From the NCBI GenBank assembly GCA_937868685.1, contig CALMMZ010000232.1:1-54085 (forward strand): DNA of 54,085 nucleotides, read 5' to 3'. The position numbers were made by a program, and so were the translations under genes. Under the pieces are notes generated by a model. That model was not told the DNA's origin. It ran no database searches and saw only the letters and a list, made by a program, of their open reading frames with translations. This document shows, piece after piece, positions 5,709 to 48,115 of this stretch (positions are counted from its first letter, which is position 1; every line of letters begins with the position of its first letter). The DNA comes from an uncultured bacterium. Lineage in GTDB: Bacteria; Patescibacteriota; Minisyncoccia; Phycocordibacterales; UBA1006.

Positions 5709-6239
5709 ATGACAGCAAGATCACCATTGACTGAAGTTCCAGTAAATACTAGTTTCCTCCAGTCAACTAAGTTTCAGTTTAGTTTTCCTACTCTGCCATT
5801 CTTGAGATATTTTGTTCAGGGTCTATCTATTCCTGGTGTATCAACTACAGCACCATCTGTTCCTTCTCCATTTGCTACAATGTATCGTCACGGTGATACA
5901 TTGGTATTTGATCCACTGACTGTTACAGTTGTTATCGATGAAGACCTGAGAGTTTGGGAAGAAACATACAAATGGTTAGTTGCATTAACCAAACCACAAA
6001 ATTTCCGTCAGTACATTAGAACAATCAATGGAAATGAAACACCATACCATGATGGTATCCTAACTATGCTGACCAATGCAAACATTCCCAATATTCGATA
6101 CAAGTTTACCTTCTGTCACCCACTTTCTATCAGTGCAATTCAGTTCACTCCTTCCGATTCTGCGGACGTTATACTGACAGCAGATATTGTTTTCAGATAT
6201 GATCAAATGGAAATAGAAAGATTACCAATTACTAGTTGA
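5709..6239 (+). CDS. gp3: tail completion / sheath stabilizer protein (T4 gp3-like)
   Basis: 176 aa, the same length as T4 gp3. Occupies the gp23-gp3-uvsY-uvsW position typical of marine T4-like phages. The call rests mainly on synteny and size. Confidence 0.5.
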   Translation: MTARSPLTEVPVNTSFLQSTKFQFSFPTLPFLRYFVQGLSIPGVSTTAPSVPSPFATMYRHGDTLVFDPLTVTVVIDEDLRVWEETYKWLVALTKPQNFRQYIRTINGNETPYHDGILTMLTNANIPNIRYKFTFCHPLSISAIQFTPSDSADVILTADIVFRYDQMEIERLPITS

Positions 6240-6264
6240 CATACTGTCTGGAATACTGTATAAT
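6236..6264 (+). promoter_or_regulatory. sigma70-type (early) promoter
   Basis: Perfect TTGACA-N17-TATAAT, 27 nt upstream of the uvsY ATG. Confidence 0.7.
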
Positions 6265-6290
6265 TAGACTTTAATGTTGAAAGGTGACAC

Positions 6291-6740
6291 ATGATTCCTC
6301 CAGTTAAGATTGACGATTTGATGGTGATGTGGGAAAAGGATGCAAAGGTGGATCCACTTGATCCTGGAGCATCTATGGCAGACATTCCCAGACTCCATGC
6401 AAAGTATCTCCGAATACTTACCTACCACAATCTCATGGTAAAGAAGTACAACAAAGAATTCAATGAATTGAAAAAGGTAAAATGGGAATACTACAACGGT
6501 GATCTGAATAATCCGGAAGACTTAAAGAAGCATGGCATGGAACCACAACTGAAGAAAATTCTAAGGCAGGATATTCAACTATATATTGATGCAGACAAAG
6601 ACTTGAATACAGCATTGGCAAGAAAAGCAAACAACCAGGAAATTGTGGATGCCTGCACATATATCCTGAAAGAATTACATAGCAGGACATTTCAAATAAA
6701 GTCTATAATCGAATGGACAAAATTTACTGATGGAACATAA
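6291..6740 (+). CDS. uvsY: recombination mediator UvsY
   Basis: 149 aa. The pattern LHAKYL...KWEYYNG...DADKDL...SRTFQIKSIIEWTKF parallels T4 UvsY (LYSKWL...LDYYSG...SADKDV...SRGFAIKHIQDM). Confidence 0.8.
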   Translation: MIPPVKIDDLMVMWEKDAKVDPLDPGASMADIPRLHAKYLRILTYHNLMVKKYNKEFNELKKVKWEYYNGDLNNPEDLKKHGMEPQLKKILRQDIQLYIDADKDLNTALARKANNQEIVDACTYILKELHSRTFQIKSIIEWTKFTDGT

Positions 6741-8213
6741 GTGAAAATAAGAATAGTAAACGTAAACGAATCATACATCAAAGTGAATTGTGAACCAAGC
6801 ATTGCTTATGAAATAAGTGATGCTTTTACCTTTATGGTTCCAGGAGCACATTTTTCACCAAAATATAGATCGAGAATTTGGGATGGTAAAATCCGATTGT
6901 TCTCAGTAGCAACAGGACTTCTATATAGAGGTCTTGTGCAGAAGCTTATCAACTTCTGTGTTGATAGAGATTATGAATACGTTTACGACAATGAGTCTTA
7001 CGATACTGAATTTTCCTTAAAGGAAGCGGAAGAGTATATCAAGAAACTGAATCCGGTACATGATGCAAGAGACTATCAGATTGATGGTTTCATGCACGCA
7101 ATCAGGATGGGTCGTTCTATTATGCTTTCTCCGACTGCATCTGGTAAATCATTTATCATCTACCTGATTGTCAATTACCTACTTGAAAAGCAAGGACACG
7201 AAAGAGGTCTGGTTATTGTTCCCAAAATTTCATTGGTTGAACAGTTATATACAGACTTTGAGGATTATTCAGTAAACAATAAATTCGACACGGAGAAAAT
7301 GTGTCATAAGATATACCAAGGGGCAGACAAAAAGTCTACTAAACCAATAACTATTTCCACTTGGCAATCAATTTACACCCTACCTAAGTCTTACTTCCAC
7401 CAATTTGATTTTGTCATTGGTGATGAAGCACATGAATTCAAAGCAAAGTCTTTGATTCACATTATGACCAATCTCGAAAATGCTTCTTTCAGACTTGGCA
7501 CCACAGGAACACTTGATGGCACCAAAACTCACGAATGGGTTTTGGAAGGTCTGTTTGGTCCCACAAGACGTGTCATTTCCACCAAGGAATTGATGGATCA
7601 AAAGCATGTTGCAGACTTCAATATCAAATGCTTATTGCTGAAGCATCCTGAAGAAGCATGTAAGGCTGCAAAAAAGTTTAGTTATCAGGAGGAAATGGAC
7701 TACATTGTAAGGAATGAAAACAGAAACAATTTCATCAAGAACCTTGCATTGTCCTTGAAAGGTAACACTCTCATACTATATCAATATGTGGAGAAGCACG
7801 GAAACATACTATTCAATCTTATAAATAGTGAAAATAAGGGCAGGAAGGTATACTTTGTTCATGGAGGAACAAAGGTACAGATACGAGAACAAATCAGAGG
7901 GATTGTTGAAAAGGAAAATGATGCCATCATTGTTGCTTCATATGGCACATTCTCAACAGGAATCAATATCAGAAACCTGCACAACGTAATCTTTGCAAGC
8001 TCATATAAATCTAGAATCAAAAACTTACAGTCGATTGGAAGAAGTCTTAGAAAGTCCGATACGAAATCTAAGGCCACTCTATATGATATTGCAGACGATC
8101 TAAAATACAAGAATCGCGAAAATTATACACTGAAGCAATTTTCAATCAGACTCCAATTGTATATGGAGGAACAGTTCGACTTCAAGTTGTATAAAATCTC
8201 TTTAAAAGGATAA
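6741..8213 (+). CDS. uvsW: UvsW RNA-DNA/DNA-DNA helicase (SF2)
   Basis: GTG start. N-terminus is colinear with T4 UvsW (IWDGKIRLF vs NWDGRIRLL). Walker A SPTASGKS, DEAH box GDEAHEF, and VASYGTFSTGINIRNLH vs T4 VASYGVFSTGISVKNLH. Confidence 0.95.
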   Translation: MKIRIVNVNESYIKVNCEPSIAYEISDAFTFMVPGAHFSPKYRSRIWDGKIRLFSVATGLLYRGLVQKLINFCVDRDYEYVYDNESYDTEFSLKEAEEYIKKLNPVHDARDYQIDGFMHAIRMGRSIMLSPTASGKSFIIYLIVNYLLEKQGHERGLVIVPKISLVEQLYTDFEDYSVNNKFDTEKMCHKIYQGADKKSTKPITISTWQSIYTLPKSYFHQFDFVIGDEAHEFKAKSLIHIMTNLENASFRLGTTGTLDGTKTHEWVLEGLFGPTRRVISTKELMDQKHVADFNIKCLLLKHPEEACKAAKKFSYQEEMDYIVRNENRNNFIKNLALSLKGNTLILYQYVEKHGNILFNLINSENKGRKVYFVHGGTKVQIREQIRGIVEKENDAIIVASYGTFSTGINIRNLHNVIFASSYKSRIKNLQSIGRSLRKSDTKSKATLYDIADDLKYKNRENYTLKQFSIRLQLYMEEQFDFKLYKISLKG

Positions 8214-31047: not shown

Positions 31048-31794
31048 ATGGAAGTTAAAGTATTACCCACGGTGGTGGTGATCACACCCACCATCGGCCA
31101 GGATTCGCTTGAAAAAGCAATTGAATCTGTCAAAAATCAAACATATACAAATATCAGACACCTGATTGTTATTGATGGCCCACACTATTATGGAACAGCT
31201 CTCAATATAATCGATAAGAATATGTCCAGTGAGCATAATGTTATGATTGCAACTCTACCAGAAAATACTGGTGCAAACGGTTTCTATGGTCATAGAGTAT
31301 ATGCAGCATTCCCACATCTAGTCAATGAAGACCTTGTTGCCTTTCTTGACGAGGATAATTGGTGGGATCCAGATCACATTCAAAGTCTAGTCGATACATT
31401 TAAGGAAAATAAGGATTGTGCATGGGTTCACTCATTGCGCAAAGTATATGTTGGTGATGAATTCCTAGCAAATGATTGCTGTGAATCTATTGGTAGATGG
31501 CCTATTGCATGGACAGCAGATAGAAACGATCCTGAATATCTTGTTGACACATCTTCCTATCTTTTTCATCGCGAATTCATAAAACAGACCTGTCATTTGT
31601 GGCATTGGGGTTGGGGTGGTGATAGACGATTCTTTATGTTGGTAAAAGATGCTGCACCCTATGCAACCTCAGGAAAGCATACATTGAATTACAAGTTGCC
31701 AGATATGAACAAGGCATATGGTGGTCAAATGGACATTTTTGAAAAGTACAATGAAGAAACAAAACGAAAATATGGAGGATATCCTTGGAATTAG
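31048..31794 (+). CDS. family 2 glycosyltransferase
   Basis: VVVITPTIGQDSLEKAIESVKNQTY is a typical GT2 N-terminus. DxD-like FLDEDNWW. Confidence 0.8.
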   Translation: MEVKVLPTVVVITPTIGQDSLEKAIESVKNQTYTNIRHLIVIDGPHYYGTALNIIDKNMSSEHNVMIATLPENTGANGFYGHRVYAAFPHLVNEDLVAFLDEDNWWDPDHIQSLVDTFKENKDCAWVHSLRKVYVGDEFLANDCCESIGRWPIAWTADRNDPEYLVDTSSYLFHREFIKQTCHLWHWGWGGDRRFFMLVKDAAPYATSGKHTLNYKLPDMNKAYGGQMDIFEKYNEETKRKYGGYPWN

Positions 31795-32438
31795 TAACTC
31801 TTAAGATAATCGAGGGAAACCTCCAATCACAGTGTCGCCAAGATGAATGGGTTTTGGAAGAAACAAACAAGAAACGAAACGGATATTTTGTAGAATTCGG
31901 TGCAACAGATGGTAAGACGATTAGCAACACCTATGGTCTTGAAAAAGACTATGGGTGGACTGGTATCGTAGCAGAGGCAAATCCAATATACAAGGATGCA
32001 TTGATTGCTAATAGATCATGCGCAATCTATACAGGTGCAGTATATACCCATGATGATGGTGTGAAATTCAATATGACCGTTGCTTCTGATCTATCAACCA
32101 TTAGTGGTTATGGTACAGATGATGAACATGCAATCAATAGACTTTCGGGGAATCTTATCAATGTTGAAACATGCACCTTGAGACAGTTGCTTGAACGTAA
32201 TGACGCACCAACAAATATCGACTATATATCTATAGACACAGAGGGCAGTGAATATGACATCCTTAAGTGTTTCTTTGATGATCCACAGTCAGACAAATAT
32301 AATGTTCAGTTATTTACTGTTGAGCATAATTTTACTCCAGCAAGAGAGAAAATTAAAGGACTGATGGAAGAACAAGGATATGAGAGAGTAAGAACTGACA
32401 TATCCAGATTTGATGATTTTTATAGGAAGAAAATATGA
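31785..32438 (+). CDS. FkbM-family methyltransferase
   Basis: SQCRQDEWVLE ... GYFVEFGATDGKTISNTYGLEKDYGWTGIVAEANP fits the FkbM pattern. Confidence 0.7.
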   Translation: MELVTLKIIEGNLQSQCRQDEWVLEETNKKRNGYFVEFGATDGKTISNTYGLEKDYGWTGIVAEANPIYKDALIANRSCAIYTGAVYTHDDGVKFNMTVASDLSTISGYGTDDEHAINRLSGNLINVETCTLRQLLERNDAPTNIDYISIDTEGSEYDILKCFFDDPQSDKYNVQLFTVEHNFTPAREKIKGLMEEQGYERVRTDISRFDDFYRKKI

Positions 32439-33319
32439 GCAAGACTGCAATAATTGGTGGTGCTTCTGGCTACACCTGGAACGATTTGAAGTATTGGGTG
32501 AATTCTATTAGACAAACTGATTTTGATGGTGATATTGTTATTGTTACTGACAATATGACAGTTGAAACTCAGGACAAGTTACTTGAAAAGAATGTTCTTA
32601 TCCATGCATTTGGAAATAGAAATTCTGAAGGTAATGTAGTAAATCTAGAGAAGAATTTACCTCCCCATGTATCTAGGTTTTTCTACATTTGGGATTTTCT
32701 AAATCGAAATGAATATGATATAGTTACAGTAACAGATACTCGTGACGTTATCTTCCAAAGCAATCCAGATACCTATTTGAGATTCTTTTCACTCGGTAAT
32801 ATTGTTGGATCCAAAGAAGGATTGACTTATGAAAATGAACCTTGGGGTAAATCAAATCTCTTCCAGTCTTTTGGGCCATACTTCTATAATAGGATTAAGG
32901 ATAAGGAAATTTTGAATGTTGGTGTTATTGGTGGTGATGCAGCTTCCATTAAGGACCTAATGCTTTTAATTTTCCAGTTGAGTTTTAATAGACCAATTCC
33001 AATTGTAGACCAGGCAGTCTATAATTTCATTCGATATGAATTTGAAAAATCATTCCACTTTATGGATAACGAGAGTCCATGGGCAATTAATCTTGGTACC
33101 ACTATCGAGGCAGTAAAGGCGGGATATGGTGATCTTGGGCAAGCTTGCCGATATGATCATAAGTTACTTGAAAAGTACGAAAAAGATTACCTACTCATGC
33201 AACCAGTAATTAAAGGTGATACTGTGATGAATTCTGATGGTGGACAATATTATGTGGTGCATCAATACGATAGAGTACCAAAACTAAAAGATATGATCCA
33301 AATTAAGTATGGAGACTGA
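32435..33319 (+). CDS. hypothetical protein, possible nucleotide-diphospho-sugar transferase
   Basis: 294 aa within the glyco-island. VTVTDTRDVIFQSNP is a DxD-like acidic motif. This is a weak assignment. Confidence 0.35.
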   Translation: MSKTAIIGGASGYTWNDLKYWVNSIRQTDFDGDIVIVTDNMTVETQDKLLEKNVLIHAFGNRNSEGNVVNLEKNLPPHVSRFFYIWDFLNRNEYDIVTVTDTRDVIFQSNPDTYLRFFSLGNIVGSKEGLTYENEPWGKSNLFQSFGPYFYNRIKDKEILNVGVIGGDAASIKDLMLLIFQLSFNRPIPIVDQAVYNFIRYEFEKSFHFMDNESPWAINLGTTIEAVKAGYGDLGQACRYDHKLLEKYEKDYLLMQPVIKGDTVMNSDGGQYYVVHQYDRVPKLKDMIQIKYGD

Positions 33320-33320
33320 T

Positions 33321-33884
33321 ATGAATAATGACGTTGGTATGATGCTCAAAGACCCCGAGTTATATACCGTTAAAGAAAAGATGACTGTGCAAATGTGGCC
33401 ACCTTCAATCGATAATGTTGCTGATAGCATGATGCCATATGTCAATAGAATGGCAGCACCCGTCAGAATTCTCATTGTGGGAACATTCAATGGTGAAGCA
33501 GCATATCGTTTCCTAGAATTGGATGAAAAGAAAAAGATAGGTGAAATAGTTTCCTTAAGTATCACAGACGACGAAATCCCATTTAACATAACTGCGGAAA
33601 GAAACCTGCAAGGAAAGGACGTTGTTCTCGGAACAAGTATTCCCGAAACAGAGTTATTTGACCTGGTATTTGTAAATTCGGAAACTAAGATTCCACTTGA
33701 CAGTCTTTATGAAAAATACTATAATAACGTCAAAGTAGGTGGTATCATCTGTGGAAATGATCACCACAAAGAAAAGGTGCGGGAATATTTGGCAGTTTTT
33801 ATGAGGGAAAAGAAATTAGGACTATCCCTGAATATTTCCAATAGAACAGTGTGGTTTTTATATAAGCACGCAAGGAGAGGTTAG
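33321..33884 (+). CDS. class I SAM-dependent methyltransferase-like protein
   Basis: ILIVGTFNGEAAYRFLE is glycine-rich and motif I-like. DLVFVNSE and GGIICGNDH. The ATG at 33321 follows GGAGA. Confidence 0.5.
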   Translation: MNNDVGMMLKDPELYTVKEKMTVQMWPPSIDNVADSMMPYVNRMAAPVRILIVGTFNGEAAYRFLELDEKKKIGEIVSLSITDDEIPFNITAERNLQGKDVVLGTSIPETELFDLVFVNSETKIPLDSLYEKYYNNVKVGGIICGNDHHKEKVREYLAVFMREKKLGLSLNISNRTVWFLYKHARRG

Positions 33885-33885
33885 T

Positions 33886-34236
33886 ATGGAATTACCATTG
33901 ACAACAATCAATACATATCCTGTGGAACTTTTCAAAACAGACAAGATCAAAACATTGGTTGACAATAAAAGGTGTTTTATTATATTGGGAGAGCCCAGCA
34001 GCTCAAATCTTATCGATGTGGATAAGATTGTAGGTGTTGTAAATGAACTGAAAGAAGACAAAGAAGATTTAATCGTTGATTTTAATGTATTGAAAACTCC
34101 AATGGGAACATTGTTCCAAGCTTTGTTTGACAACAATGCAAAAATAGCATTGCGTCCTTGTGGTGTTGGGCAAGTCGATCTTAATAACAACGTAACTGAA
34201 TATACACTCAACTATTTTTGGATTGATGCAGCATGA
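33886..34236 (+). CDS. truncated, catalytically inactive paralog of prohead protease gp21
   Basis: KRCFIILGEPSSSN...VLKTPMGTLFQALFDNNAKIALRPCGVGQ aligns with gp21 NRAFGELGHPDTPS...VLDTPMGNIVKGLLDGGACLGVSTRGVGS. His is replaced by Glu and Ser by Arg. Confidence 0.7.
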   Translation: MELPLTTINTYPVELFKTDKIKTLVDNKRCFIILGEPSSSNLIDVDKIVGVVNELKEDKEDLIVDFNVLKTPMGTLFQALFDNNAKIALRPCGVGQVDLNNNVTEYTLNYFWIDAA

Positions 34237-34268
34237 AAACAGCGTTGGTATTAGGAGCAGGTGGATAA
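34233..34268 (+). pseudogene. orphan 5' stub of an SDR (epimerase) gene: MKTALVLGAGG*
   Basis: The ATG overlaps the stop of the upstream ORF (ATGA). The 11 codons match the N-terminus of the functional gene at 34948 (KTALVCGAGG) and stop exactly within the GxxGxxG motif. Confidence 0.7.
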
Positions 34269-34315: not shown

Positions 34316-34960
34316 ATGGAAAAAACCGGATTTATCTATATTTGGTATGATCGCAAACACAAAAAATACTATATCGGAAGTCATTTAGGGACAGAAGATG
34401 ATGGTTATGTTTGTTCATCTAGGTGGATGCGTCAATCTCACAAGCGCAGACCACAAGACTTTAAGAGAAGGATCCTTCAGAGAAATATCAGTAAAGAAGT
34501 GCTAAAAGAAGAAGAACATAAGTGGTTGAAGTTAATTAAAAATGATGAATTGGGTAAAAAATACTACAACTTAACCATTGCTTTGAACGGCAATGGTTGG
34601 GAAAAAGGAAAAGAACGATCTGAAAAAACAAAGAAGAAAGTTAGTGATGGTGTTAAACGTGCGTGGGAAGACGGTAGACTCAATAAAGAACTTTGTGGTA
34701 AAAAAGGAACTGTTCCCTGGAATAAAGGAAAAACTGGAATTTATTCTGAGGAAACTAAACAAAAACTTCGTGATGCAAGAAAGAAGCAAGTATTTTCTCT
34801 AGAAGCAATTGAAAAAAGAACATCTAAACTTCGGGGTAAGAAGCGAAGAAAAGAAGATATAGACAAGATGGTACAAACAAAAAAGGAACGCAGAGAAGCA
34901 GGACTTTATAAACCTGTGATTCCGTGGAACAAAGGATTGAAATTGAAATGTCAAAATTAA
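34316..34960 (+). CDS. GIY-YIG homing endonuclease with NUMOD3 repeats
   Basis: GFIYIWYDRKHKKYYIGSH gives GIY...YIG. PWNKGKTG and PWNKGLK are NUMOD3-like. Lys-rich. The 3' end overlaps the start of the epimerase gene by 13 nt. Confidence 0.9.
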   Translation: MEKTGFIYIWYDRKHKKYYIGSHLGTEDDGYVCSSRWMRQSHKRRPQDFKRRILQRNISKEVLKEEEHKWLKLIKNDELGKKYYNLTIALNGNGWEKGKERSEKTKKKVSDGVKRAWEDGRLNKELCGKKGTVPWNKGKTGIYSEETKQKLRDARKKQVFSLEAIEKRTSKLRGKKRRKEDIDKMVQTKKERREAGLYKPVIPWNKGLKLKCQN

Positions 34961-35973
34961 AGACCGCCCTGGTTTGTGGTGCTGGAGGATTTATAGGCAA
35001 CCACATGGTGAATAGGTTAGTCAAAGAAGGGTATTGGGTAAGAGCAGTAGACCTGAAGGAACCAGAATACTCAAAGACAAATGCAGATCATTTCATTATC
35101 AGAGATTTGCGTGATGCCAGAGAAGTAAGTGAGTTAATATCATATGCAGGTTGTCTAAGAAATCCTAACCAGTTATTTTCAAGAGAATTTGATAAGGGGT
35201 TTGATGAAATCTATCAATTTGCAGCAGATATGGGTGGTGCTGGATTTGTATTCACAAAAGAGCATGATGCAGAAATCATGCATAACTCTGCCACAATCAA
35301 TCTGAATGTCCTTGATGCATTGAGCAAAAGAAAAGATGGTCATAAGACTAAGATTTTCTATTCATCTTCTGCTTGCATCTATCCAGAATACAATCAATTG
35401 AATCCAGACAATCCAAAATGCGATGAAGCAAGTGCATATCCTGCAATGCCTGATAGTGAATATGGTTGGGAAAAACTCTTTAGTGAAAGACTATATGATG
35501 CATATCGTAGAAATTATCACCTTCAGACATATGTTGCTAGGTTTCATAATATCTATGGACCCTTGGGAACATGGCAAGGTGGTAGAGAAAAATCACCAGC
35601 AGCAATTTGCAGAAAAGTAATCAAGGCAACAGATCAAATTGAAGTATGGGGTGATGGTAAGCAAACTCGATCATTCCTGTATATCGATGATTGCATTGAT
35701 GCAGTTAGATTACTTATTAATTCCAATTTCAGAGGACCAGTAAATATTGGTTCAGAAGAAATGGTAACTATCAATGAATTGGTTAATACTGTCAAGTCCA
35801 TTGCAGGTAAGAATGATCTAAAGGTTGTTCATGTTGAAGGACCTCAGGGTGTCAGAGGAAGAAACTCTGACAACGAATTGATTGAAGCAAAGTTGGATTG
35901 GCATCCAAATGTATGTCTCTATGATGGTTTGAAAAGAACCTATAAGTGGATTGAGGAACAGGTTAATGGATAA
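34948..35973 (+). CDS. GDP-mannose 3,5-epimerase-like SDR
   Basis: GAGGFIGNH. SSSACIYPEYNQL, YGWEKL, RFHNIYGPLGTWQGGREKSPAAICRK, WGDGKQTRSF and GVRGRNSDNELI closely parallel plant and bacterial GME as I recall it. Confidence 0.8.
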   Translation: MSKLKTALVCGAGGFIGNHMVNRLVKEGYWVRAVDLKEPEYSKTNADHFIIRDLRDAREVSELISYAGCLRNPNQLFSREFDKGFDEIYQFAADMGGAGFVFTKEHDAEIMHNSATINLNVLDALSKRKDGHKTKIFYSSSACIYPEYNQLNPDNPKCDEASAYPAMPDSEYGWEKLFSERLYDAYRRNYHLQTYVARFHNIYGPLGTWQGGREKSPAAICRKVIKATDQIEVWGDGKQTRSFLYIDDCIDAVRLLINSNFRGPVNIGSEEMVTINELVNTVKSIAGKNDLKVVHVEGPQGVRGRNSDNELIEAKLDWHPNVCLYDGLKRTYKWIEEQVNG

Positions 35974-36178
35974 ACCAAATTTAGACACAATGTATAGTGC
36001 CTATTTGGATGGCACACTACAGGATTATTGTACCAAACATGATTTAGATTTTGTATTGGTAAATATGGTTATGAAACACTGGCCTACTGCATTGGCCCAT
36101 GGTATTATTCATGGTTGGCCAACAACCGAACAAGTTGAGGAGATTACAAAAAATGCATCCACCAAAAAAGAAGATTAA
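35966..36178 (+). CDS. hypothetical protein
   Basis: 70-aa ORF. The ATG is preceded by GAGGAA and overlaps the epimerase stop. Confidence 0.45.
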   Translation: MDKPNLDTMYSAYLDGTLQDYCTKHDLDFVLVNMVMKHWPTALAHGIIHGWPTTEQVEEITKNASTKKED

Positions 36179-36383
36179 ATGTGTGTTACATAATTGGTCT
36201 CCTTGGAGAAGAATACAGAATGGAGCAGGCACAGAAACTAGAATTTGCGAAGACTGCCACATAACAGAAACCAGACAATCTAAAATAAAGTATGATGCGG
36301 TTTACTTAGCAACCATGGAAGCAAGTAAAGAATTGGAAACATTGAGAGAAACTTTAGAGAAAAAAGATGAAACCATTACTTAA
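36153..36383 (+). CDS. hypothetical Cys/His-containing small protein
   Basis: 76 aa from the ATG behind GAGGAG. CVLHNW...ICEDCH is a possible zinc-ribbon-like pattern. Confidence 0.45.
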   Translation: MHPPKKKIKCVLHNWSPWRRIQNGAGTETRICEDCHITETRQSKIKYDAVYLATMEASKELETLRETLEKKDETIT

Positions 36384-37254
36384 ACTTGGGTTCACAGATA
36401 CATTTGGTGCCATTGAAGAATTCTTTACTGAAACACTTTCTACAGAATTTGAAATTGTAAGAGACGATGAAAATCCAGACTATCTCATTTTTGGAGATAG
36501 GAATTTTGGGGAGAACAATTTAAGGTATGACGAAACTAAGTGTATTAAGATTTTTTACACGGGAGAGAACCAGAGGCCTTACAATTATCGATGCCATTAC
36601 GCTATTAGCTTCGATCACGATGATAATGGCCGTAACTATAGGCTACCCCTTTATGTAATATATGATTGGGACAACAAGCGAAAGAAGGTAAACAATTCCA
36701 AGACCTTTGCTAGAACTTCCTACTCAATGAGCAAACATGAATTCGAGCAAAGAAAGTTTTGCTCATTTGTTGTCAAGAATGGTGGTTGTCAAAAGAGAAA
36801 TGACTTCTTCCATATGTTGAGTGAATATCAACCAGTCGATGCAGCAGGACCACTATTCAACAATGTTGGATACATACTAGAAGGTGGTGAAAGGGCAGTG
36901 CAGACAAAGTTGGAGTTTCTACCAAAATATCGGTTTAATCTCTGCTTTGAGAATTCATCCTATCCAGGTTACGCAACAGAAAAACTTTATGAAGCAATGA
37001 TGGGTAACACAATTCCTATCTATTGGGGAAGTCCAACTATTGAAATGGACTTCAACCCAGATGCATTCCTAAATTGGCATGACTATGGTAATGACGACGA
37101 TTTTATAGAAGCAATTAAAAGAGTAAATGAGGACTACTATCTCTACCAGGATATGTATTGTCAACCACTCTTTGGCAGAAAAAACAAATTTATGGACTTG
37201 AGTAAATTTGTAAGTTGGTTCATGCTAAACGTGTATAAGGGATCGGGATTATGA
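36367..37254 (+). CDS. GT10-family glycosyltransferase (alpha-1,3-fucosyltransferase-like)
   Basis: FCSFVVKNGGCQKRNDFF...PVDAAGPLFNN and RFNLCFENSSYPGYATEKLYEAMMGNTIPIYWG match the hallmark FucT motifs. Confidence 0.8.
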   Translation: MKPLLKLGFTDTFGAIEEFFTETLSTEFEIVRDDENPDYLIFGDRNFGENNLRYDETKCIKIFYTGENQRPYNYRCHYAISFDHDDNGRNYRLPLYVIYDWDNKRKKVNNSKTFARTSYSMSKHEFEQRKFCSFVVKNGGCQKRNDFFHMLSEYQPVDAAGPLFNNVGYILEGGERAVQTKLEFLPKYRFNLCFENSSYPGYATEKLYEAMMGNTIPIYWGSPTIEMDFNPDAFLNWHDYGNDDDFIEAIKRVNEDYYLYQDMYCQPLFGRKNKFMDLSKFVSWFMLNVYKGSGL

Positions 37255-37451
37255 GCACATTTATTTGGGTGCTTGTCACATGGACAGCATTTAGTTTCAT
37301 ATATGCTTTCTTCATAGCAGACAGAATTCCCGACGGTTTATTTTGGTTCATACTTGATTTTATCATTGCTGCACCAGCAATAATAATTATGATAGCATGT
37401 GTCGTATTATACGAAACTATAGATAACTTTTTTAATAGGAGAAAAAAATGA
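37251..37451 (+). CDS. small two-TM membrane protein
   Basis: 66 aa with two hydrophobic helices and a basic C-terminus (NRRKK). ATGA overlaps on both sides. Confidence 0.6.
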   Translation: MSTFIWVLVTWTAFSFIYAFFIADRIPDGLFWFILDFIIAAPAIIIMIACVVLYETIDNFFNRRKK

Positions 37452-37642
37452 AGTATCTAGTTATGGCAATTGCAACATTTGGTTTGGTTGCATGTAAGGA
37501 AGACAGTGGTGTTCACTTGGGAACATTCAAGGCAGACTGTGCAGCAAAACAAGGAACACTTGCTGAAGTTGCCGGTTCGCCAAACGAATATACCTGCACA
37601 CTACCAGACGGTTCAGTATTGAAGACAACTGAAAAGAAGTGA
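37448..37642 (+). CDS. small lipoprotein
   Basis: MKYLVMAIATFGLVAC is a signal peptide with a lipobox. 64 aa. Confidence 0.65.
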   Translation: MKYLVMAIATFGLVACKEDSGVHLGTFKADCAAKQGTLAEVAGSPNEYTCTLPDGSVLKTTEKK

Positions 37643-37643
37643 C

Positions 37644-38375
37644 ATGAATAAAGCATTGATCATTACACCTACTGGGTGTCCTTATTTTCTCGATGAAGAA
37701 TTTGATAAGGATAATCATTGGGTATTCAGAAAACCTGGAAGATCGTTTGAAACTTGTGCTGTGATCTTCAACGATTTTGAACCAGAACCTGGAACATATG
37801 ATATGGTCATTCACCATAAAGGTAGGAAATGGTCAATGCTTCCAGAAATTGCAAACAAAGTGAAATGGGAAAATTATGACTACATTGCTTATTTTGATGA
37901 TGATTATTGTACTGATATTCAGTCAATCGAGACGGCGTTAAGTATTGCAAGAAGACATGATATGGGATACTTTCAACAGAGCTTGACATCCTGGACGGTT
38001 TACCCTATACTAGAGCACAATCCCGATTTTGTATTTACGGAAACTAATTTTACGGAACTTGGAGTACCTTTCTTCCGGAATGATATATTCCGAAAGGTAC
38101 TCCGTTTCTTTACAGATTATAAACCAGGAAATGCGGAATGGGGAATGGATAAGGTGTTATGTTTCTATTTGCAGATGAACGCCCATATTATCCATGCAAG
38201 TAAAATCAAGCATATGAGACGTGAAAGTTCCTATGATAAAACAGAAGGTTTCCGAGAAATGGATTACCTGATGCGGGAATGGTTCCCAAAGTATATGAAA
38301 GACAAATTCAACCTAGATTATCAGTATGATGATCGACAGGTTGAATTTGCAGGTCTAAAGAAGGTTTCATCATGA
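37644..38375 (+). CDS. hypothetical protein, DUF707-like (possible glycosyltransferase)
   Basis: 243 aa. YDYIAYFDDDY acidic motif. The overall pattern recalls DUF707. Weak assignment. Confidence 0.4.
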   Translation: MNKALIITPTGCPYFLDEEFDKDNHWVFRKPGRSFETCAVIFNDFEPEPGTYDMVIHHKGRKWSMLPEIANKVKWENYDYIAYFDDDYCTDIQSIETALSIARRHDMGYFQQSLTSWTVYPILEHNPDFVFTETNFTELGVPFFRNDIFRKVLRFFTDYKPGNAEWGMDKVLCFYLQMNAHIIHASKIKHMRRESSYDKTEGFREMDYLMREWFPKYMKDKFNLDYQYDDRQVEFAGLKKVSS

Positions 38376-39225: not shown

Positions 39226-39432
39226 ACGAGTATTATTGACGGGTGGAGCAGGTGGAAAAATCCAGATTTTAGAAAAAATCAAATCGAAAAGAAAAAGTTA
39301 ATGTGGTCTACAGGAGAATTTATGGGTAATAAAGGAAAATCGTGGTTTACTGACGGAACAAAAAATATAATGTTAGCATCAAATGATGTAATTCCGAAAG
39401 GATTTTATAAAGGGAGAGTATTTCATGGTTAA
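39218..39432 (+). pseudogene. orphan SDR 5' stub (MTKRVLLTGGAGG...) plus decayed homing-endonuclease remnant
   Basis: A 27-codon ORF begins by overlapping the stop of the upstream ORF and copies the dehydratase N-terminus. The following 43-codon ORF ends NKGKSWFTDGTKNIML...IPKGFYKGR, a pattern typical of HEG C-terminal DNA-binding tails, and overlaps the dehydratase ATG. Confidence 0.55.
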
Positions 39433-40465
39433 GCGCTGTCTCCTGACAGGTGGAGCTGGGTTTATAGGCCACCACATTATTGATTTGTTCCTAGAAAAGA
39501 CCGATTGGGAGATTGTATCTCTTGATCGGTTGGACTATTCTGGAAACCTAAACAGGTTACACAGTGTTCTAGAGAAGTATCCTAAAGAAACACAACAAAG
39601 ACTTAAGGTGGTATGGCATGATCTAAAGGCGCCCATATCAGACCTAACCAAGAATTTCATTGGTGATCCAAATATTATCCTGCACCTTGCAGCATCCAGT
39701 CATGTTGATAGGTCTATCACTCACCCAATGGAATTTGTGATGGATAATACTGTGGGAACAGTAAACGTTCTAGATTTTGCAAGAGGTTTAAAGAACCTTG
39801 AACGTATGATCTATTTCAGCACAGATGAAATCTTTGGTATTGCACCTCCTGGTGTATCGTACAAGGAACGTGACAGATATAACTCAACCAACCCCTATTC
39901 TGCTTCCAAAGCAGCAGGTGAGGAATTCTGTGTTGCCTATGAAAATACCTATAAACTTCCAATCTTCATTACTCATTGCATGAATGTCTTTGGTGAACGT
40001 CAACACCCAGAGAAGTTCATTCCATTGTGTATTAGGAAGATTAGAGACTCAGAAAAGATTTTCATCCATAGTGATTCAACACGTACAATCCCTGGGTCAA
40101 GATTCTATATACATGCAAAGGATGTGGCAGATGCAATTCTGTTTATATTAACTCTATCACCTGAAAACTTGAAAACAATTTACACACCAGATTGGGGTGG
40201 TGCAAAATGCCCCAAGTTCAATATTGTTGGTAAGGAAGAAATCAATAACCTTGAATTGGTAAAGATGATCGCAAATGCACAAGGTAGAACACCTATCTGT
40301 GAAATGGTTGACTTCCATTCATCCAGACCTGGTCATGATTTGAGGTATGCACTTGATGGTGGGTATATGAAAAGTCTGGGTTGGGAACCAAGGTTTAGTC
40401 TTCAGGAAAGAATCAGTGAAGTGACTGAATGGTCACTTGCAAACAAAGAATGGATTGAAATATGA
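39425..40465 (+). CDS. rfbB: dTDP-glucose 4,6-dehydratase
   Basis: GGAGFIGHH. YSASKAAGE (YxxxK). HCMNVFGERQHPEKFIP. RPGHDLRYALD is characteristic of RfbB/RmlB. Confidence 0.85.
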   Translation: MVKRCLLTGGAGFIGHHIIDLFLEKTDWEIVSLDRLDYSGNLNRLHSVLEKYPKETQQRLKVVWHDLKAPISDLTKNFIGDPNIILHLAASSHVDRSITHPMEFVMDNTVGTVNVLDFARGLKNLERMIYFSTDEIFGIAPPGVSYKERDRYNSTNPYSASKAAGEEFCVAYENTYKLPIFITHCMNVFGERQHPEKFIPLCIRKIRDSEKIFIHSDSTRTIPGSRFYIHAKDVADAILFILTLSPENLKTIYTPDWGGAKCPKFNIVGKEEINNLELVKMIANAQGRTPICEMVDFHSSRPGHDLRYALDGGYMKSLGWEPRFSLQERISEVTEWSLANKEWIEI

Positions 40466-41199
40466 CCAATGATATGGAAACAATTGAGATAAACAAAAAA
40501 TATGGATCGGGAGCATATCCTTCCGATATTCTCAGACATGAATTTGATAACCTAACAAAAAGTTCTGATAAATGGGAACATTATTTTGGTATATACACTC
40601 ATTTCTACCACCAATTGAAAAGTCACCAAAGATGTGATATAAAGTCAGGGCAAGTTTTGGTTGAGGTAGGTGTTCAACAAGGTGGTTCATTGGAGTTATG
40701 GGGTAATGTTTGGCCTGGTCAAGTAATTGGTATTGACGTTGATCCAGAATGTCTAAAACTCAAGTATGATAATCCAAGTATCAGTGTTGAATTAGGCGAC
40801 CAGGGTTCACCACATTTCTGGGATGACTTCCTATCAAGGCATCCAAGGATTGATTTTTTCATTGACGATGGTGGACATAATATGGACCAACAGATTATCA
40901 CCTTTGAGAAAGTATTCCCAAAACTATCAGTTGGAGGCATATACATTTGTGAAGATTGCCATACTTCCTACATGCAATACAATGGTGGTGGATTGAATGT
41001 AAAGGGATCATTTATTTCCTATGCAAAATCCTACATTGATATTATCCATGCAGGATGGTGGGAAGAAATGAATGCAGACTTGGAACAAAGGAAGAAAATT
41101 GGGAAAGACTTGACTTCTGTCCATTTTTATGATAGTATAGTCGTGTTTGAAAAGTTTGGAAAAGCGGAAATGAAGCGAGTGACACCCAAAGGGAAATAA
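40462..41199 (+). CDS. CmcI-family (cephalosporin hydroxylase-like) methyltransferase
   Basis: VEVGVQQGGSLELWG, FIDDGGHNMDQQ and GGIYICED fit the CmcI / sugar O-methyltransferase family. Confidence 0.65.
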   Translation: MTNDMETIEINKKYGSGAYPSDILRHEFDNLTKSSDKWEHYFGIYTHFYHQLKSHQRCDIKSGQVLVEVGVQQGGSLELWGNVWPGQVIGIDVDPECLKLKYDNPSISVELGDQGSPHFWDDFLSRHPRIDFFIDDGGHNMDQQIITFEKVFPKLSVGGIYICEDCHTSYMQYNGGGLNVKGSFISYAKSYIDIIHAGWWEEMNADLEQRKKIGKDLTSVHFYDSIVVFEKFGKAEMKRVTPKGK

Positions 41200-41463
41200 A
41201 TGGCAAAGACCTGGTATTTTGCAGAATGTAAAAAATGCATGGAAGTTTGCCGAGTAATGGTAAATAATCCAAAATGCACCGCCGCTTATTTGGGAGATTA
41301 TAATAGACAAATAAGCAAGTGGTTGATTAAGCATTATGGTTGCGAACTGACACTAGGATGGCGTGATGACCACCTAGATGCATTGTGGCCACAAGGATAT
41401 GAAGTTAAAGATTTGTGGTTTGAGAAAACTGATGAGCAATTGGAAGATGATGAAGATGTTTGA
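41200..41463 (+). CDS. hypothetical Cys-rich protein with acidic tail
   Basis: 87-aa ORF directly abutting the upstream stop. Confidence 0.5.
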   Translation: MAKTWYFAECKKCMEVCRVMVNNPKCTAAYLGDYNRQISKWLIKHYGCELTLGWRDDHLDALWPQGYEVKDLWFEKTDEQLEDDEDV

Positions 41464-42754
41464 GAATGGACCAGTAGAAGAATTAAAGACGTGTTTGGCA
41501 TGTGGTGGGAATTGTTTGACTCCACTACTAGACCTAGGAAAGCAACCACCAGCAAATTCACTTAAGAAAACTGCAATTCAGGTACAGGAACAATTTCCCC
41601 TTGCAATTAATCGTTGCTTGGATTGTTACCATGTCCAGTTGACGCATATTGTCAATCCTGAAATTCTGTATAAAGATTACCCATATGTAAGTGGTACTTC
41701 AAAGACTATGATGGAATACTTCGAGTGGTTTTCTAAATTTGCTGACGAATATTATAAGTCACTTAATGACAGAACACCAAAGGTAATTGTAGAGATTGGT
41801 TGCAATGATGGTTCACAATTAGACCAATTCAATAAATTAAACGGAAAATTTGTGACAATTGGTGTTGATCCTGCTGAAAATATTATAAAGAGTGCTAGAA
41901 AAAAGTCTGATCAACACATTTTGTATTGTGGATTTTTTGATAATGAATTTGTCGAATGGATGTACGATGACATTGAATTTGGCTATAACAAACCAGATAT
42001 TGTAGTAGCACAAAATGTGTTTGCTCATAATCCAGACCCATTTACATTTTTAAACAATGTAAAAAATATGATGGCAGCTGATGGTTTGTTATTCATCCAA
42101 ACTTCACAGGCAAATATGATTTTGAATGGTGAGTTTGATACAATTTACCATGAGCACATTTCATTCTACAATATTAACTCGATGCAAGAGCTGTGCAAAA
42201 GAGCAGGGATGGAACTGATTGATGTTATCAAAACTCCTTTGCACGGAACTAGTTACATTTTTGTTATTGGTCAAACCCCACCTGTGACCTCAACAAAATA
42301 CAGAATCGAAAATCTGATTGCGATGGAAAAGGCAGTAGGACTCTATAGTCCAAAGACTTACTATGAATACAAAAAGAAGTGTGAAGCATTGCCTCAAAAA
42401 CTGACTGATGAAATTACTCAATATTGGAGAAGTGATGTTGGTAAGATGGTAGTTGGTTATGGTGCCGCAGCAAAGGGCATGACACTAATTAATTACACTG
42501 ATATTGGTAAATACATGAGTTGCATTGTTGATGATAACCCATTGAAGCAAGGTAAGTTTGCTCCTGGTTCAAAGCTTCCGATTATCAATTCTGATTTTCT
42601 AAAGACAACAGAGGACTCAATTGTATTCATTCCTCTTGCTTGGAATTTCTTTGATGAAATCGTATCGAAGATCAAATCTATCAGAGACAATCCAAATGAT
42701 GTTTTTGTCAGATATTTCCCAAAGGTTGAAAGTTTTAGGATAGACAATGATTAA
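41456..42754 (+). CDS. NDP-hexose C-methyltransferase (TylCIII-like)
   Basis: N-terminal zinc-ribbon CLACGG...C..CYH. SAM motif EIGCNDGSQL. C-terminal VGYGAAAKGMTLINY is typical of sugar C-methyltransferases. The ATG at 41456 overlaps the upstream stop. Confidence 0.75.
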   Translation: MFENGPVEELKTCLACGGNCLTPLLDLGKQPPANSLKKTAIQVQEQFPLAINRCLDCYHVQLTHIVNPEILYKDYPYVSGTSKTMMEYFEWFSKFADEYYKSLNDRTPKVIVEIGCNDGSQLDQFNKLNGKFVTIGVDPAENIIKSARKKSDQHILYCGFFDNEFVEWMYDDIEFGYNKPDIVVAQNVFAHNPDPFTFLNNVKNMMAADGLLFIQTSQANMILNGEFDTIYHEHISFYNINSMQELCKRAGMELIDVIKTPLHGTSYIFVIGQTPPVTSTKYRIENLIAMEKAVGLYSPKTYYEYKKKCEALPQKLTDEITQYWRSDVGKMVVGYGAAAKGMTLINYTDIGKYMSCIVDDNPLKQGKFAPGSKLPIINSDFLKTTEDSIVFIPLAWNFFDEIVSKIKSIRDNPNDVFVRYFPKVESFRIDND

Positions 42755-43559
42755 GAAAATCCTATATTACCACATGTACCTGACCGATGAACCAAGTACA
42801 TGGACTAATATATTCCTTGAACAGATGAAGGCAATGGAAGATTCCGGACTCTTGAGTGAGTTGGATATGATTAAGATTGTTGCAATCACTCAGGATGATG
42901 AACGTATCAGAGAATTGGAATCACTGTGTTCCACTGAAATGGCAGCTGACAAGGGTGTTAATTTTGATATTCATTTTGTCAAGAACCCCTGGGCAAATGA
43001 TATTGCGATGATGGAAAACCTTGAGAGTCCACATACAATCACTGAAAACTATACCTTCAGAAGGATATATGAGGACTGTCAAAACGCAGAGGAAGAATTC
43101 TATGTCATGTATATTCATACAAAAGGAATCACCTCTTGCATGAGACTAATGAGCAAGAATTGTATCCTTGCACAATCGTTCAAGAATTACTATTACTGGC
43201 GTCAGTTTTTGAATTGGGGTGTGATCAAAAGATGGAGGTCATGCGTTGATGCATTAGATGATAACGATGTTGCTGGTGTGAATTTCTTTAGTTCACCATC
43301 ACCACATTTTAGTGGAAATTTTTGGTGGGCAAAATCTTCATATATCAAAACACTTCCCAATCCTGCTACCAAAGATTGGTGGTATGCTCTGAAGGAAAAG
43401 ACTTCCAATATTTGGTTGAAAGGTGCATCTGATAGATTTAGGGATGAACAATGGGTATGCAGTAATCCCGACGTAAAGGTCTATAAGGTGATAGATATGG
43501 ATGAAGGAAACAATCCTGCAGGAAAATATCTACCTACAACCATGTACGATCCCGATTGA
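42747..43559 (+). CDS. hypothetical protein (last gene of glyco-island)
   Basis: 270-aa ORF with ATGA-type coupling. Has a YIHTKG motif. No confident family. Confidence 0.55.
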   Translation: MIKKILYYHMYLTDEPSTWTNIFLEQMKAMEDSGLLSELDMIKIVAITQDDERIRELESLCSTEMAADKGVNFDIHFVKNPWANDIAMMENLESPHTITENYTFRRIYEDCQNAEEEFYVMYIHTKGITSCMRLMSKNCILAQSFKNYYYWRQFLNWGVIKRWRSCVDALDDNDVAGVNFFSSPSPHFSGNFWWAKSSYIKTLPNPATKDWWYALKEKTSNIWLKGASDRFRDEQWVCSNPDVKVYKVIDMDEGNNPAGKYLPTTMYDPD

Positions 43560-43584
43560 CATTTGACACAAACTAGTTTATAAT
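43556..43584 (+). promoter_or_regulatory. sigma70-type (early) promoter
   Basis: Perfect TTGACA-N17-TATAAT. The -35 overlaps the upstream stop codon. 29 nt before the ATG at 43613. Confidence 0.7.
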
Positions 43585-47779: not shown

Positions 47780-48115
47780 ATGAATGACCCAGAGACGTTT
47801 AAAAGGACAGTTTGGGGATATTGGGAAGTCCTCAATGAAGGTCCAGGATACAAAGTCAAACTATTATCCATAAATCCCAAAGGAAGTATCAGTAAACAAT
47901 ATCACAATTTTCGATCGGAGACGTGGTGTATAGTTAGTGGTAAAGGACAATTATTTTTGGATGATAAAATGTCTGTAGTATTGACAGGAGACGTATTTAC
48001 TATTCCCGTGAGAGCAGTACACAGAGTTTTAAACATTTCAGAAACAGAAAACCTGGTTGCCATTGAAGTGCAATTGGGATCAATAACGGAAGAAACAGAT
48101 ATAGTAAGGATATAA
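47780..48115 (+). CDS. cupin-domain protein (type II mannose-6-phosphate isomerase / ManC C-terminal-like)
   Basis: WGYWEVL..GPGYKVKLLSINPKGSISKQYHNFRSETWCIVSGKG...IPVRAVHRVLN...LVAIEVQLG...EETDIVRI matches the ManC cupin pattern. Confidence 0.75.
   Translation: MNDPETFKRTVWGYWEVLNEGPGYKVKLLSINPKGSISKQYHNFRSETWCIVSGKGQLFLDDKMSVVLTGDVFTIPVRAVHRVLNISETENLVAIEVQLGSITEETDIVRI

Follow-up and report, generated by a model that had tools for sequence, protein, structure and literature searches.

Gene content of the locus

The window, that is, the whole 54,085-nt stretch of DNA analyzed here, covers part of the genome of a marine T4-like phage. It includes a 13-kb glycan island with at least four glycosyltransferase and at least three methyltransferase genes, among which lie a gene for a predicted GDP-mannose 3,5-epimerase (hereafter GME) and a gene for a GT10-family transferase (Table 1); a 2OG-Fe(II) oxygenase is also encoded within the island. 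The AF2 model of the GT6-like transferase upstream of GME matches 1g8o (Foldseek E value of 1.9e-10, TM of about 0.5), and its gene is kept in the clade as the upstream partner, being found at 20 related loci. The conserved ORF that separates it from GME had no match in a Pfam search. On the other side, the GT2-like transferase, which follows GT10 in most relatives, matches hyaluronan synthase, ppGalNAcT, and RmlT (Foldseek E values of about 1e-5). Further downstream, the RmlB-like dehydratase scores 239 bits against TIGR01181, under the cutoff of 365, and the possible class I methyltransferase reaches 8e-4 and 20.7 bits against Pfam Methyltransf_24, under the 26.3-bit cutoff. A scan for promoters and terminators found no enrichment over shuffles and only two perfect sigma-70 consensus sites.

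Table 1. Coordinates of features of the glycan island and its surroundings in the window
Feature	Position	Strand	Basis
GT2 glycosyltransferase	31048..31794	+	Pfam Glycos_transf_2, 3.4e-13
FkbM-family methyltransferase	31785..32438	+	Pfam Methyltransf_21, 7.4e-15
GT-A glycosyltransferase, GT6-like fold (alpha3GalT/ABO transferase-like)	32435..33319	+	AF2 model, pLDDT 89.8
Conserved island ORF, 191 aa	33309..33884	+	17 related loci, between GT6-like gene and GME
Orphan stub left from the former GME start (MKTALVLGAGG*)	34233..34268	+	Alignment to L015 and L101
GIY-YIG/NUMOD3 homing endonuclease in GME 5' end	34316..34960	+	PHROG 314, 9e-14; NUMOD3
GME (predicted GDP-mannose 3,5-epimerase)	34948..35973	+	PDB 2c59 match, fingerprint residues
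Lineage-specific insertion, 389-393 nt	35974..36366	+	Missing in L015-L018, which have a GME-GT10 overlap
GT10-family (alpha1,3/4-fucosyltransferase-like) GT-B transferase, 295 aa	36367..37254	+	Pfam, HpFucT match
GT-A (GT2-like) glycosyltransferase, invariant DDD motif	37644..38375	+	AF2 model, pLDDT 89.5
RmlB-like NDP-hexose 4,6-dehydratase	39425..40465	+	Pfam GDP_Man_Dehyd and Epimerase
Possible class I methyltransferase	40462..41199	+	Weak Methyltransf_24-like match
NDP-hexose C-methyltransferase-type enzyme	41378..42754	+	Pfam Methyltransf_13, Methyltransf_23, Methyltransf_14
Stand-alone type II phosphomannose isomerase-like cupin, 111 aa	47780..48115	+	Pfam MannoseP_isomer

Insertions at the epimerase gene

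An earlier note on this DNA placed the GT10 gene about 400 nt downstream of GME. The distance holds (393 nt), but the gap is a recent insertion and the native arrangement is an overlap: the insertion site is the former overlap of the GME stop with the GT10 start, which the closest relatives retain. Shared only by the window and one relative (L101), the insertion contains two small ORFs, at 35966-36178 (70 aa) and at about 36153-36383 (with a CxxH..CxxC pattern). As a test for a repeat or mobile element, paralogues of the 389-nt insert were sought in the window, in the assembly, and at the related loci; apart from L101, none were found. The 5' end of GME is altered as well. The homing endonuclease gene located there is missing from L015 and L101, both of which keep the native GME start, and the stub left upstream in the window matches the first 34 nt of their GME genes. 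The GME ORF of the window encodes 341 aa from its ATG, with an alternative GTG start at position 34924.

Identity of the epimerase and the transferase

Judged by family and residues, the epimerase ORF is a genuine GME. The GME peptides previously quoted as near-diagnostic are all present in its translation, and the protein matches the Arabidopsis thaliana GME (PDB 2c59) with an E value of 1.8e-89 and a score of 304 bits, whereas the next family reaches 91 bits. The triad of the SDR superfamily, S141, Y172, and K176 (motifs SSSAC and YGWEK), is invariant in the alignment and corresponds to S143/Y174/K178 of the plant enzyme; the acid-base pair C143 and K215 (GGREKSPAA) corresponds to C145/K217, and N201 (FHNIYGP), R241 (QTRSF), and R305 (GVRGRNSDN) correspond to N203, R243, and R306. 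In characterized GM35E enzymes (Arabidopsis numbering), the Ser143/Tyr174/Lys178 triad oxidizes and reduces C4, Cys145 and Lys217 are the acid-base pair, with a His in place of the Lys in GMER/Fcl, Arg306 (Lys in GMER) acidifies the Cys, and Arg243, at the diphosphate, and Asn203 complete the set (PMC8787198). Phylogenetic placement, a check proposed in the earlier note, likewise groups the enzyme with GME rather than with other NDP-sugar SDRs: it shares a clade with the plant GME, a branch with a support of 100 separates Fcl, and the viral GMEs form a clade nested inside the bacterial ones, with the plant enzyme outside. Two other identities were considered and rejected. As GalE, the protein scores 64.7 bits against TIGR01179 (cutoff of 262) and possesses the extra Cys/Lys pair; as Fcl/GMER, it scores 99 bits against NF047922 (cutoff of 500) and has Lys and Arg at the positions of Lys217 and Arg306.

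The downstream gene was correctly recognized as GT10, and the peptide quoted for it earlier is present in its translation. Both Pfam domains are above their cutoffs (FucT_N, PF18025, 1.2e-19, 70.9 bits; Glyco_transf_10, PF00852, 3.4e-17, 63.1 bits), and the protein, a soluble minimal core, matches Helicobacter pylori FucT (2nzw) with an E value of 1.1e-35. The conserved residues include E67 (YTGEN), R144, and E195-N196-SSYPG-Y202-A-T204-E205-K206, such that the catalytic and donor-binding residues of H. pylori FucT, namely, the catalytic base Glu95, the oxocarbenium-stabilizing Glu249, the E-N-x5-Y-x-T-E-K donor motif, and the pyrophosphate-binding Arg (PMC4202792, PMC12717137), are all intact. 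Both GME (dN/dS of 0.07 versus L015) and GT10 (dN/dS of 0.05) are under strong purifying selection.

Supply of GDP-fucose and mannose

In agreement with the earlier note, no gmd or fcl gene was found above the cutoff in the window, the only signals being cross-matches to GME and to the RmlB-like gene; neither gene was found in the records of four relatives (33 to 79 kb, at most 47% complete). A search of the assembly returned a gmd gene on a 1.5-kb contig and half of an fcl gene on another tiny contig, the flanks of which give no origin for either and are uninformative on phage supply. The host may also supply GDP-L-fucose, a point against an L-galactose module. The cupin that had been described as ManC type does contain the isomerase-type domain (PF01050, 8.8e-20, 71.5 bits, cutoff of 23.6) but lacks the guanylyltransferase part; it is a single domain whose alignment to TIGR01479 is confined to positions 363-461, no NTP_transferase was found in the window, and a bifunctional ManC with an N-terminal guanylyltransferase was accordingly rejected. 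Homologs of the cupin were found in 22 phage records only, most of these phages also have GME, and it is possible that the cupin feeds the mannose pool.

Pairing of GME and GT10 across phages and bacteria

Among the IMG/VR viral contigs seeded with GT10, GME lies directly upstream in 7 of 7 informative cases and Gmd/Fcl in none (0/7). GT10 is carried by all 18 members of the GME subclade to which the window belongs (18/18), which do not represent 18 independent events because the whole island is syntenic within this clade. GME also adjoins very divergent GT10-like genes, in differing contexts, in the cyanophages S-SM2, S-T4, and Sf-CH5/8, and the two genes are 2 kb apart in cyanophage S-SSM7. 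In S-SKS1, S-SRM01, and the uncultured jumbo phage LR756508, the phage GT10 is instead accompanied by Gmd and Fcl. Both types of module thus exist in cultured cyanophages (S-SM2 and S-T4 versus S-SKS1 and S-SRM01), and, given the 7/7 and 18/18 pairings together with the Gmd-Fcl pairings elsewhere, a gene for GDP-L-hexose supply lies near GT10 at each of the informative phage loci.

The converse does not hold, as GT10 is absent from most cyanophage-type GME loci. At 80 bacterial GME loci, two HMM rounds and inspection of the 25 most common neighbor Pfam families detected no GT10, the neighbors being mainly GT4; GME therefore does not require a GT10 partner, and the pairing is phage biased in that sample. 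GME genes are widespread in marine phages, and the pair is not rare. The earlier description of a viral L-galactosylation pathway as unusual was overstated: GME is present in at least 600 viral contigs of IMG/VR and is annotated in the "cell wall synthesis and modification" cluster of cyanophage S-SCSM1 (Wang et al. 2022, PMC9602691). Most phage GME homologs are labeled UDP-glucose 4-epimerase in databases, a widespread label that the present assignment corrects.

A putative L-galactosylation module

Taken together, the sequences tilt toward GME and GT10 forming a two-gene L-galactosylation module within the phage glycan island. GDP-L-galactose is the 6-hydroxy analog of GDP-L-fucose, and GT10 alone among the families of the island has, to our knowledge, characterized members that use GDP-beta-L-sugar donors. 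The epimerase would interconvert host GDP-D-mannose and GDP-beta-L-galactose, with GDP-L-gulose as a minor product, and the GT10 protein, as an inverting GT-B transferase with GDP-L-galactose as the donor, would put an alpha-L-galactosyl residue on an acceptor that may be built and methylated by the neighboring GT2, GT6-like, and GT2-like transferases and the methyltransferases. The irreversible transfer would pull the unfavorable epimerase equilibrium forward; coupled transferases are known to overcome this equilibrium, and in vitro transfer of L-galactose with GDP-L-Gal as the donor is documented for the GT10 enzymes AtFucTA, FucT V, and the Lewis FucTs (PMC8787198). Because the pair is retained in related phages in the absence of fucose-making genes, L-galactose is probably what the transferase attaches; since phage GT10s lie near their own GDP-L-hexose supply, which here is GME, L-galactosyl transfer is the best reading. 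The functional link proposed in the earlier note is thus backed by conserved adjacency, the stop/start overlap, the complementary distribution of Gmd and Fcl, and in vitro acceptance of GDP-L-galactose, whereas we infer the donor actually used, along with the linkage, the acceptor, and the target (virion protein or host envelope).

It would be fairly unlikely, though well worth weighing, for GT10 to be an ordinary L-fucosyltransferase supplied with GDP-L-fucose by the host or by phage gmd and fcl genes located elsewhere, with the epimerase serving another island transferase or a host pathway. The characterized GT10 enzymes are all fucosyltransferases, the GT10 of the window retains the full GDP-fucose-binding motif, the bin of this partial phage sequence contains gmd and an fcl fragment, and at least three further transferases of the island could use the GME product. 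However, phages that need GDP-fucose for GT10 have their own Gmd and Fcl genes adjoining it, the GT10 loci of the clade are always associated with GME and never with Gmd and Fcl, and the other island transferases have the GT-A fold and come from families whose usual donors are UDP- or dTDP-sugars. The relevant product might also be GDP-L-gulose (or GDP-D-altrose), such that the module would add L-gulose, as happens with GME homologs in bleomycin biosynthesis. This appears improbable: from C2 to C5, L-galactose should share with L-fucose the stereochemistry recognized by the conserved hydrogen-bond network of GT10, L-gulose would be inverted at C3, and the only documented GT10 transfer of this kind is that of L-galactose.

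Processing of GDP-L-galactose before transfer, either by methylation or by the RmlB-like 4,6-dehydratase to a 6-deoxy sugar (a route to L-fucose-type sugars independent of Gmd and Fcl), is quite improbable, even though such a dehydratase is found along with GME in the window, S-SM2, S-SSM7, and one further related locus (L019), other phage GMEs are followed downstream by ORFs for further SDRs in 21 of 104 cases, and the GME-GT10 slot of relatives holds methyltransferase genes. The dehydratase adjoins a C-methyltransferase, the classic NDP-4-keto-6-deoxyglucose partner, and this adjacency suggests that it belongs to a separate, second sugar branch of the island; moreover, a separate 4-reductase was not seen in the window, and we know of no such dehydratase activity on GDP-L-galactose. 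Finally, plants use GME as the committed epimerase in ascorbate synthesis and the island includes a 2OG-Fe(II) oxygenase, so that the epimerase could be a metabolic gene outside glycosylation, for example, in an L-galactose/ascorbate step supporting phage oxygenases of this type. This idea was rejected as very improbable because no further gene of the ascorbate pathway was recognized among the island ORFs; GME is, besides, surrounded by transferases and methyltransferases and, in relatives, is coupled to the gene of a transferase.

If L-galactosylation is the function of the pair, fucosyltransferase-family enzymes of ocean phages receive L-galactose through a single-enzyme shortcut that starts from GDP-mannose and replaces the two-enzyme fucose route, and a very abundant phage group would make an unrecognized L-galactose-containing glycan when infecting its hosts. 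These enzymes would then be the first natural GT10 L-galactosyltransferases and possible biocatalysts for rare L-sugar glycosides. A more elaborate proposal is speculative and, on present evidence, unlikely: that in this clade of abundant uncultured marine T4-like phages, a dedicated GT10 L-galactosyltransferase, the first natural GT10 with GDP-L-galactose as its physiological donor, helps build a methylated L-galactose glycan directly on virion proteins in the cytoplasm, through soluble transferases and methyltransferases and with no lipid carrier, as a counterpart of giant-virus capsid glycosylation.

Comparison with known systems

The GME of the window is about 48% identical to that of A. 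thaliana (PDB 2C59/2C54/2C5A) over the full catalytic core and is alike both to it and to the GM35E of Methylacidiphilum fumariolicum (EC 5.1.3.18) in the extended SDR fold, the triad, the Cys/Lys pair, and both Arg residues. It differs from the plant and bacterial enzymes in being phage encoded, with a short N terminus and no ascorbate link, and its activity is predicted. Similarly, the phage GT10 matches H. pylori FucT/FutA (PDB 2NZW, 5ZOI) in both domains, Glu95, Arg195, and the E-N-x5-Y-x-T-E-K motif but, at only 295 aa, lacks the heptad repeats and the C-terminal amphipathic tail, and it is partnered with GME, with GDP-L-galactose as the putative donor, rather than with a GDP-fucose pathway.

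Among phages, the marine T4-like S-SCSM1 encodes a GME (ORF123) that is 57.6% identical to that of the window and likewise carries fucosyltransferase-family genes and a small cupin of the mannose-6-phosphate isomerase type. In S-SCSM1, however, Gmd and Fcl lie beside GME and the transferases belong to the GT11, NodZ, and O-FucT types, whereas the clade of the window has GME only, coupled to GT10. S-SKS1, S-SRM01, and LR756508 are alike in having GT10 within a few kilobases of a GDP-L-hexose supply in a glycan island, but their supply is the classical GDP-L-fucose pathway instead of the single-enzyme GME route. The closest functional parallel is with laboratory cascades in which GME makes GDP-L-Gal from GDP-Man and AtFucTA or FucT V transfers the L-galactose (Ohashi et al. 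2017; Stangier et al. 1997; Duffels et al. 2000; reviewed in PMC8787198). The pair in the window would follow the same two-enzyme logic; however, those cascades exploit side activities in vitro, whereas the pairing described here is a natural, selected gene arrangement.

Contig and phage

The window is an entire contig (54 kb) of a mixed 1.55-Mb bin and represents a fragment of a T4-like myovirus, with genes for the gp22 scaffold, gp23 capsid protein, UvsW, gp46/47, clamp loader, gp43 polymerase, UvsX, and gp41; the phage genome is incomplete. The polymerase shares only ~46% identity with its counterparts in cultured cyanophages, which places the phage in an uncultured marine lineage. Other contigs of the same assembly (G000) carry genes of the classical GDP-L-fucose route, namely a complete gmd (C244, 1.5 kb) and an fcl fragment beside a DegT-type aminotransferase (C163, 1.6 kb); these may come from the host, another virus, or the window's phage.

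Identity of the epimerase and the transferase

An earlier note, made from the sequence alone, identified a GDP-mannose 3,5-epimerase (hereafter GME) and, downstream, a GT10-family transferase, and both assignments hold; the peptide blocks that it quoted are all found in the window. The epimerase matches the plant structures at 304 bits, compared to 91 bits for the runner-up family (a UDP-glucose 4-epimerase structure) and ~78 bits for GDP-fucose synthase. In NCBIfam, which contains no GME model, it falls far short of the equivalog thresholds for GalE, Fcl, Gmd, and RmlB. The residues that discriminate GMEs are the triad S143/Y174/K178, the acid-base pair C145/K217 (Lys versus His in Fcl), R306 (Arg instead of Lys), R243, and N203 (PMC8787198); all eight are present and are invariant in an alignment of the phage homologs with the plant enzyme. 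Phylogenetic placement, which the earlier note had asked for, used a tree of 173 GMEs (FastTree, rooted with Fcl). A single clade (support 99) unites the viral GMEs, including that of the window; it arises from within the bacterial GMEs, and the plant enzyme falls outside. The dN/dS ratio relative to L015, a related contig with a 91%-identical GME, is 0.07. Short of an assay, we consider this protein an established member of the GME family.

In the GT10 protein, E67 within YTGEN (the catalytic base, Glu95) and R144 (the pyrophosphate Arg) are intact, the family motif E-N-x5-Y-x-T-E-K is preserved (E195...K206), and dN/dS relative to L015 is 0.05. With its 295 aa, the protein amounts to a minimal soluble core and has neither the heptad repeats nor the membrane tail found in the Helicobacter enzyme. 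The GT10 tree was a quick IQ-TREE search without bootstraps. In the related locus L021/L108, GT10 consists of two overlapping ORFs (5990-6777), which may reflect a frameshift or an assembly error; the copy may be decaying.

Features of the glycan island and the cupin gene, in contig order
Feature	Position	Strand	Description
2OG-Fe(II) oxygenase, then GT2, then FkbM methyltransferase			5' part of the island
GT6-like GT-A protein	32435-33319		294 aa, conserved, no Pfam match; model pLDDT 89.8
Conserved ORF			191 aa; between the GT6-like gene and GME
Orphan stub of GME start	34233-34268		11 codons, upstream of the homing endonuclease
GIY-YIG homing endonuclease	34316-34960		inserted in the GxxGxxG-coding first codons of GME
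GME	34948-35973	+	matches Arabidopsis GDP-mannose 3,5-epimerase crystal structures, E 1.8e-89
Small ORF 1 of insertion	35966-36178		takes over the former GT10 ATG
Small ORF 2 of insertion	~36153-36383		CxxH...CxxC pattern
GT10	36367-37254	+	both Pfam domains of bacterial α1,3-fucosyltransferases; H. pylori FucT E 1.1e-35
GT2-like GT-A protein			243 aa, invariant DDD motif, pLDDT 89.5; after GT10
RmlB-like 4,6-dehydratase, then Methyltransf_24-like ORF (weak, sub-threshold), then sugar C-methyltransferase
Conserved ORF			270 aa; last in the island
Cupin	47780-48115		stand-alone, type-II phosphomannose-isomerase-like

Insertions around GME and GT10

The gap of ~400 nt noted earlier between the two genes exists, as an insertion of 389-393 nt (35974-36366), but this spacing arose secondarily. 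The four metagenomic contigs most closely related to the window (91%-identical GMEs) have a GME stop codon that overlaps the start of GT10, and so does a contig of 132 kb from a 73%-identical relative. The insertion, located exactly at this junction, is common only to the window and L101, a near-identical IMG/VR contig. In other relatives, FkbM-like or class-I methyltransferase genes fill the slot, which makes this site a hot spot of gene acquisition. The homing endonuclease insertion supplied a recoded replacement GME start downstream, and the uninterrupted allele is found in L015 and L101 (99% identical in GME). In phage S-SRM01, a homing endonuclease lies directly upstream of gmd. Two small ORFs follow GT10 (37251-37642): by eye, one (66 aa) resembles a hydrophobic membrane protein, and the other (64 aa) has a putative N-terminal lipoprotein-like signal (MKYLVMAIATFGLVAC). 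Relatives have ORFs of similar size at this position.

Linkage of GME and GT10 across phages

A search of IMG/VR with the window's GT10 yielded eight loci, one of them cut at the contig end. GME lies directly upstream of GT10 in all seven informative loci, and Gmd or Fcl occurs within 10 kb in none; gmd and fcl are also missing from the records of four relatives (33-79 kb, 20-47% complete), in line with the earlier note, which identified neither in the window. Its view that such a phage pathway would be unusual overstates the case, given that a GME-seeded search found relatives in at least 600 viral stretches. Among the best 80 of these, a GT10(-like) gene is near GME in 22 (20/62 when at least 3 kb is available downstream), and on short contigs the lack of GT10 partly reflects truncation, as in L074 and L080, whose GMEs are identical but of which only L080 extends to GT10.

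Within the window's GME subclade (support 100), GT10 is present in 18/18 members; because gene order is conserved over the entire island in this clade, these represent a single retained arrangement, not 18 events. More telling are the cultured cyanophages S-SM2, S-T4, and Sf-CH5/8, in which a highly divergent GT10-like gene (T4-GC 1237/1238; Pfam GT10 matches of 2e-11 to 5e-12) comes immediately after GME in otherwise different neighborhoods. The two genes are 2 kb apart in S-SSM7, S-SSM6a, and Sf-FS3. The remaining phage GT10 genes accompany the classical GDP-fucose pathway instead, in S-SKS1 (Gmd, 562 bits; Fcl, 444 bits), S-SRM01 (whose GT10 is of the S-SM2 type), and the jumbo phage LR756508. 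Thus, every informative phage locus has a GDP-L-hexose supply gene (Gmd plus Fcl, or GME) close to GT10. In two IMG/VR loci (L032 and L033), Gmd directly precedes GME, with a GT10-like gene 2-4 kb downstream and no Fcl within 10 kb, possibly a different 6-deoxy-L-hexose route.

At phage GME loci without GT10, GT11 fucosyltransferase-family genes account for 13/104 downstream ORFs, so the pairing of phage GME with a fucosyltransferase-type enzyme is general. The neighbors at 80 bacterial GME loci are mostly GT4, with GT11 in four and GT10 in none. The GME of L123, a contig labelled as a Bifidobacterium breve MAG, falls inside the viral, cyanophage-type clade; this is probably phage DNA binned into a bacterial MAG.

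Proposed pathway and the surrounding island

GDP-L-galactose is GDP-L-fucose with an additional hydroxyl at C6, and no family in the island other than GT10 has characterized members that use a GDP-β-L-sugar donor. L-galactose transfer from GDP-L-galactose is documented for GT10 family members (Arabidopsis FucTA, human FucT V, and Lewis enzymes); GME yields an equilibrium mixture that is mostly substrate, and an irreversible transferase drives the pathway (PMC8787198). Together, these observations suggest that GME would convert GDP-mannose into GDP-L-galactose, from which GT10 would form an α-L-galactoside as part of a larger, heavily methylated glycan.

The island (~30.4-43.6 kb) holds both genes in an order conserved across the clade. 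The closest structural matches of the 294-aa model are bovine α1,3-galactosyltransferase, human ABO A/B transferases, and Bacteroides BoGT6a; a GT6-like protein and GT10 in one island are reminiscent of blood-group-type glycan chemistry. Two perfect 12/12 sigma-70 consensus promoters (TTGACA-17-TATAAT) lie just upstream of the GME/GT10 block (33697-33725) and at the island end (43556-43584); promoter-like sites overall are not enriched over shuffles.

The contig encodes no nucleotidyltransferase, so the phage depends on host GDP-mannose, and no priming phosphoglycosyl transferase or WecA-type enzyme; its predicted gene content does not point to lipid-carrier assembly. Because lipid-carrier genes are missing and the enzymes are soluble, we lean toward proteins, possibly those of the virion, as targets of glycosylation in the cytoplasm, although this is speculation. 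The cupin, previously called ManC-type, is isomerase-like but lacks an accompanying nucleotidyltransferase. Its homologs occur in only 22 phage records, and most of those phages also have GME, often within 1-4 kb, a co-occurrence that is not independent given that all these phages are related. The S-SCSM1 homolog was published as the "first cyanophage mannose-6-phosphate isomerase" (PMC9602691). There is modest support for the earlier idea that the cupin might feed the mannose pool.

Comparison with known systems

Phage databases contain GME homologs (57-63% identity) in ~27 cultured or single-cell marine phages, nearly all labelled "UDP-glucose 4-epimerase" or "nucleotide-sugar epimerase," which is a systematic mis-annotation. 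Many metagenomic homologs are correctly labelled at JGI, and a phage GME was annotated earlier in S-SCSM1 (PMC9602691). Among the papers searched, we found no description of a GME-GT10 module as a Gmd/Fcl-free replacement or of an L-galactose-containing viral glycan, and a review of giant-virus glycans does not mention L-galactose. The GME-GT10 pair is a solid, fairly common, and testable version of sugar islands already known from phages, not a system of a new kind.
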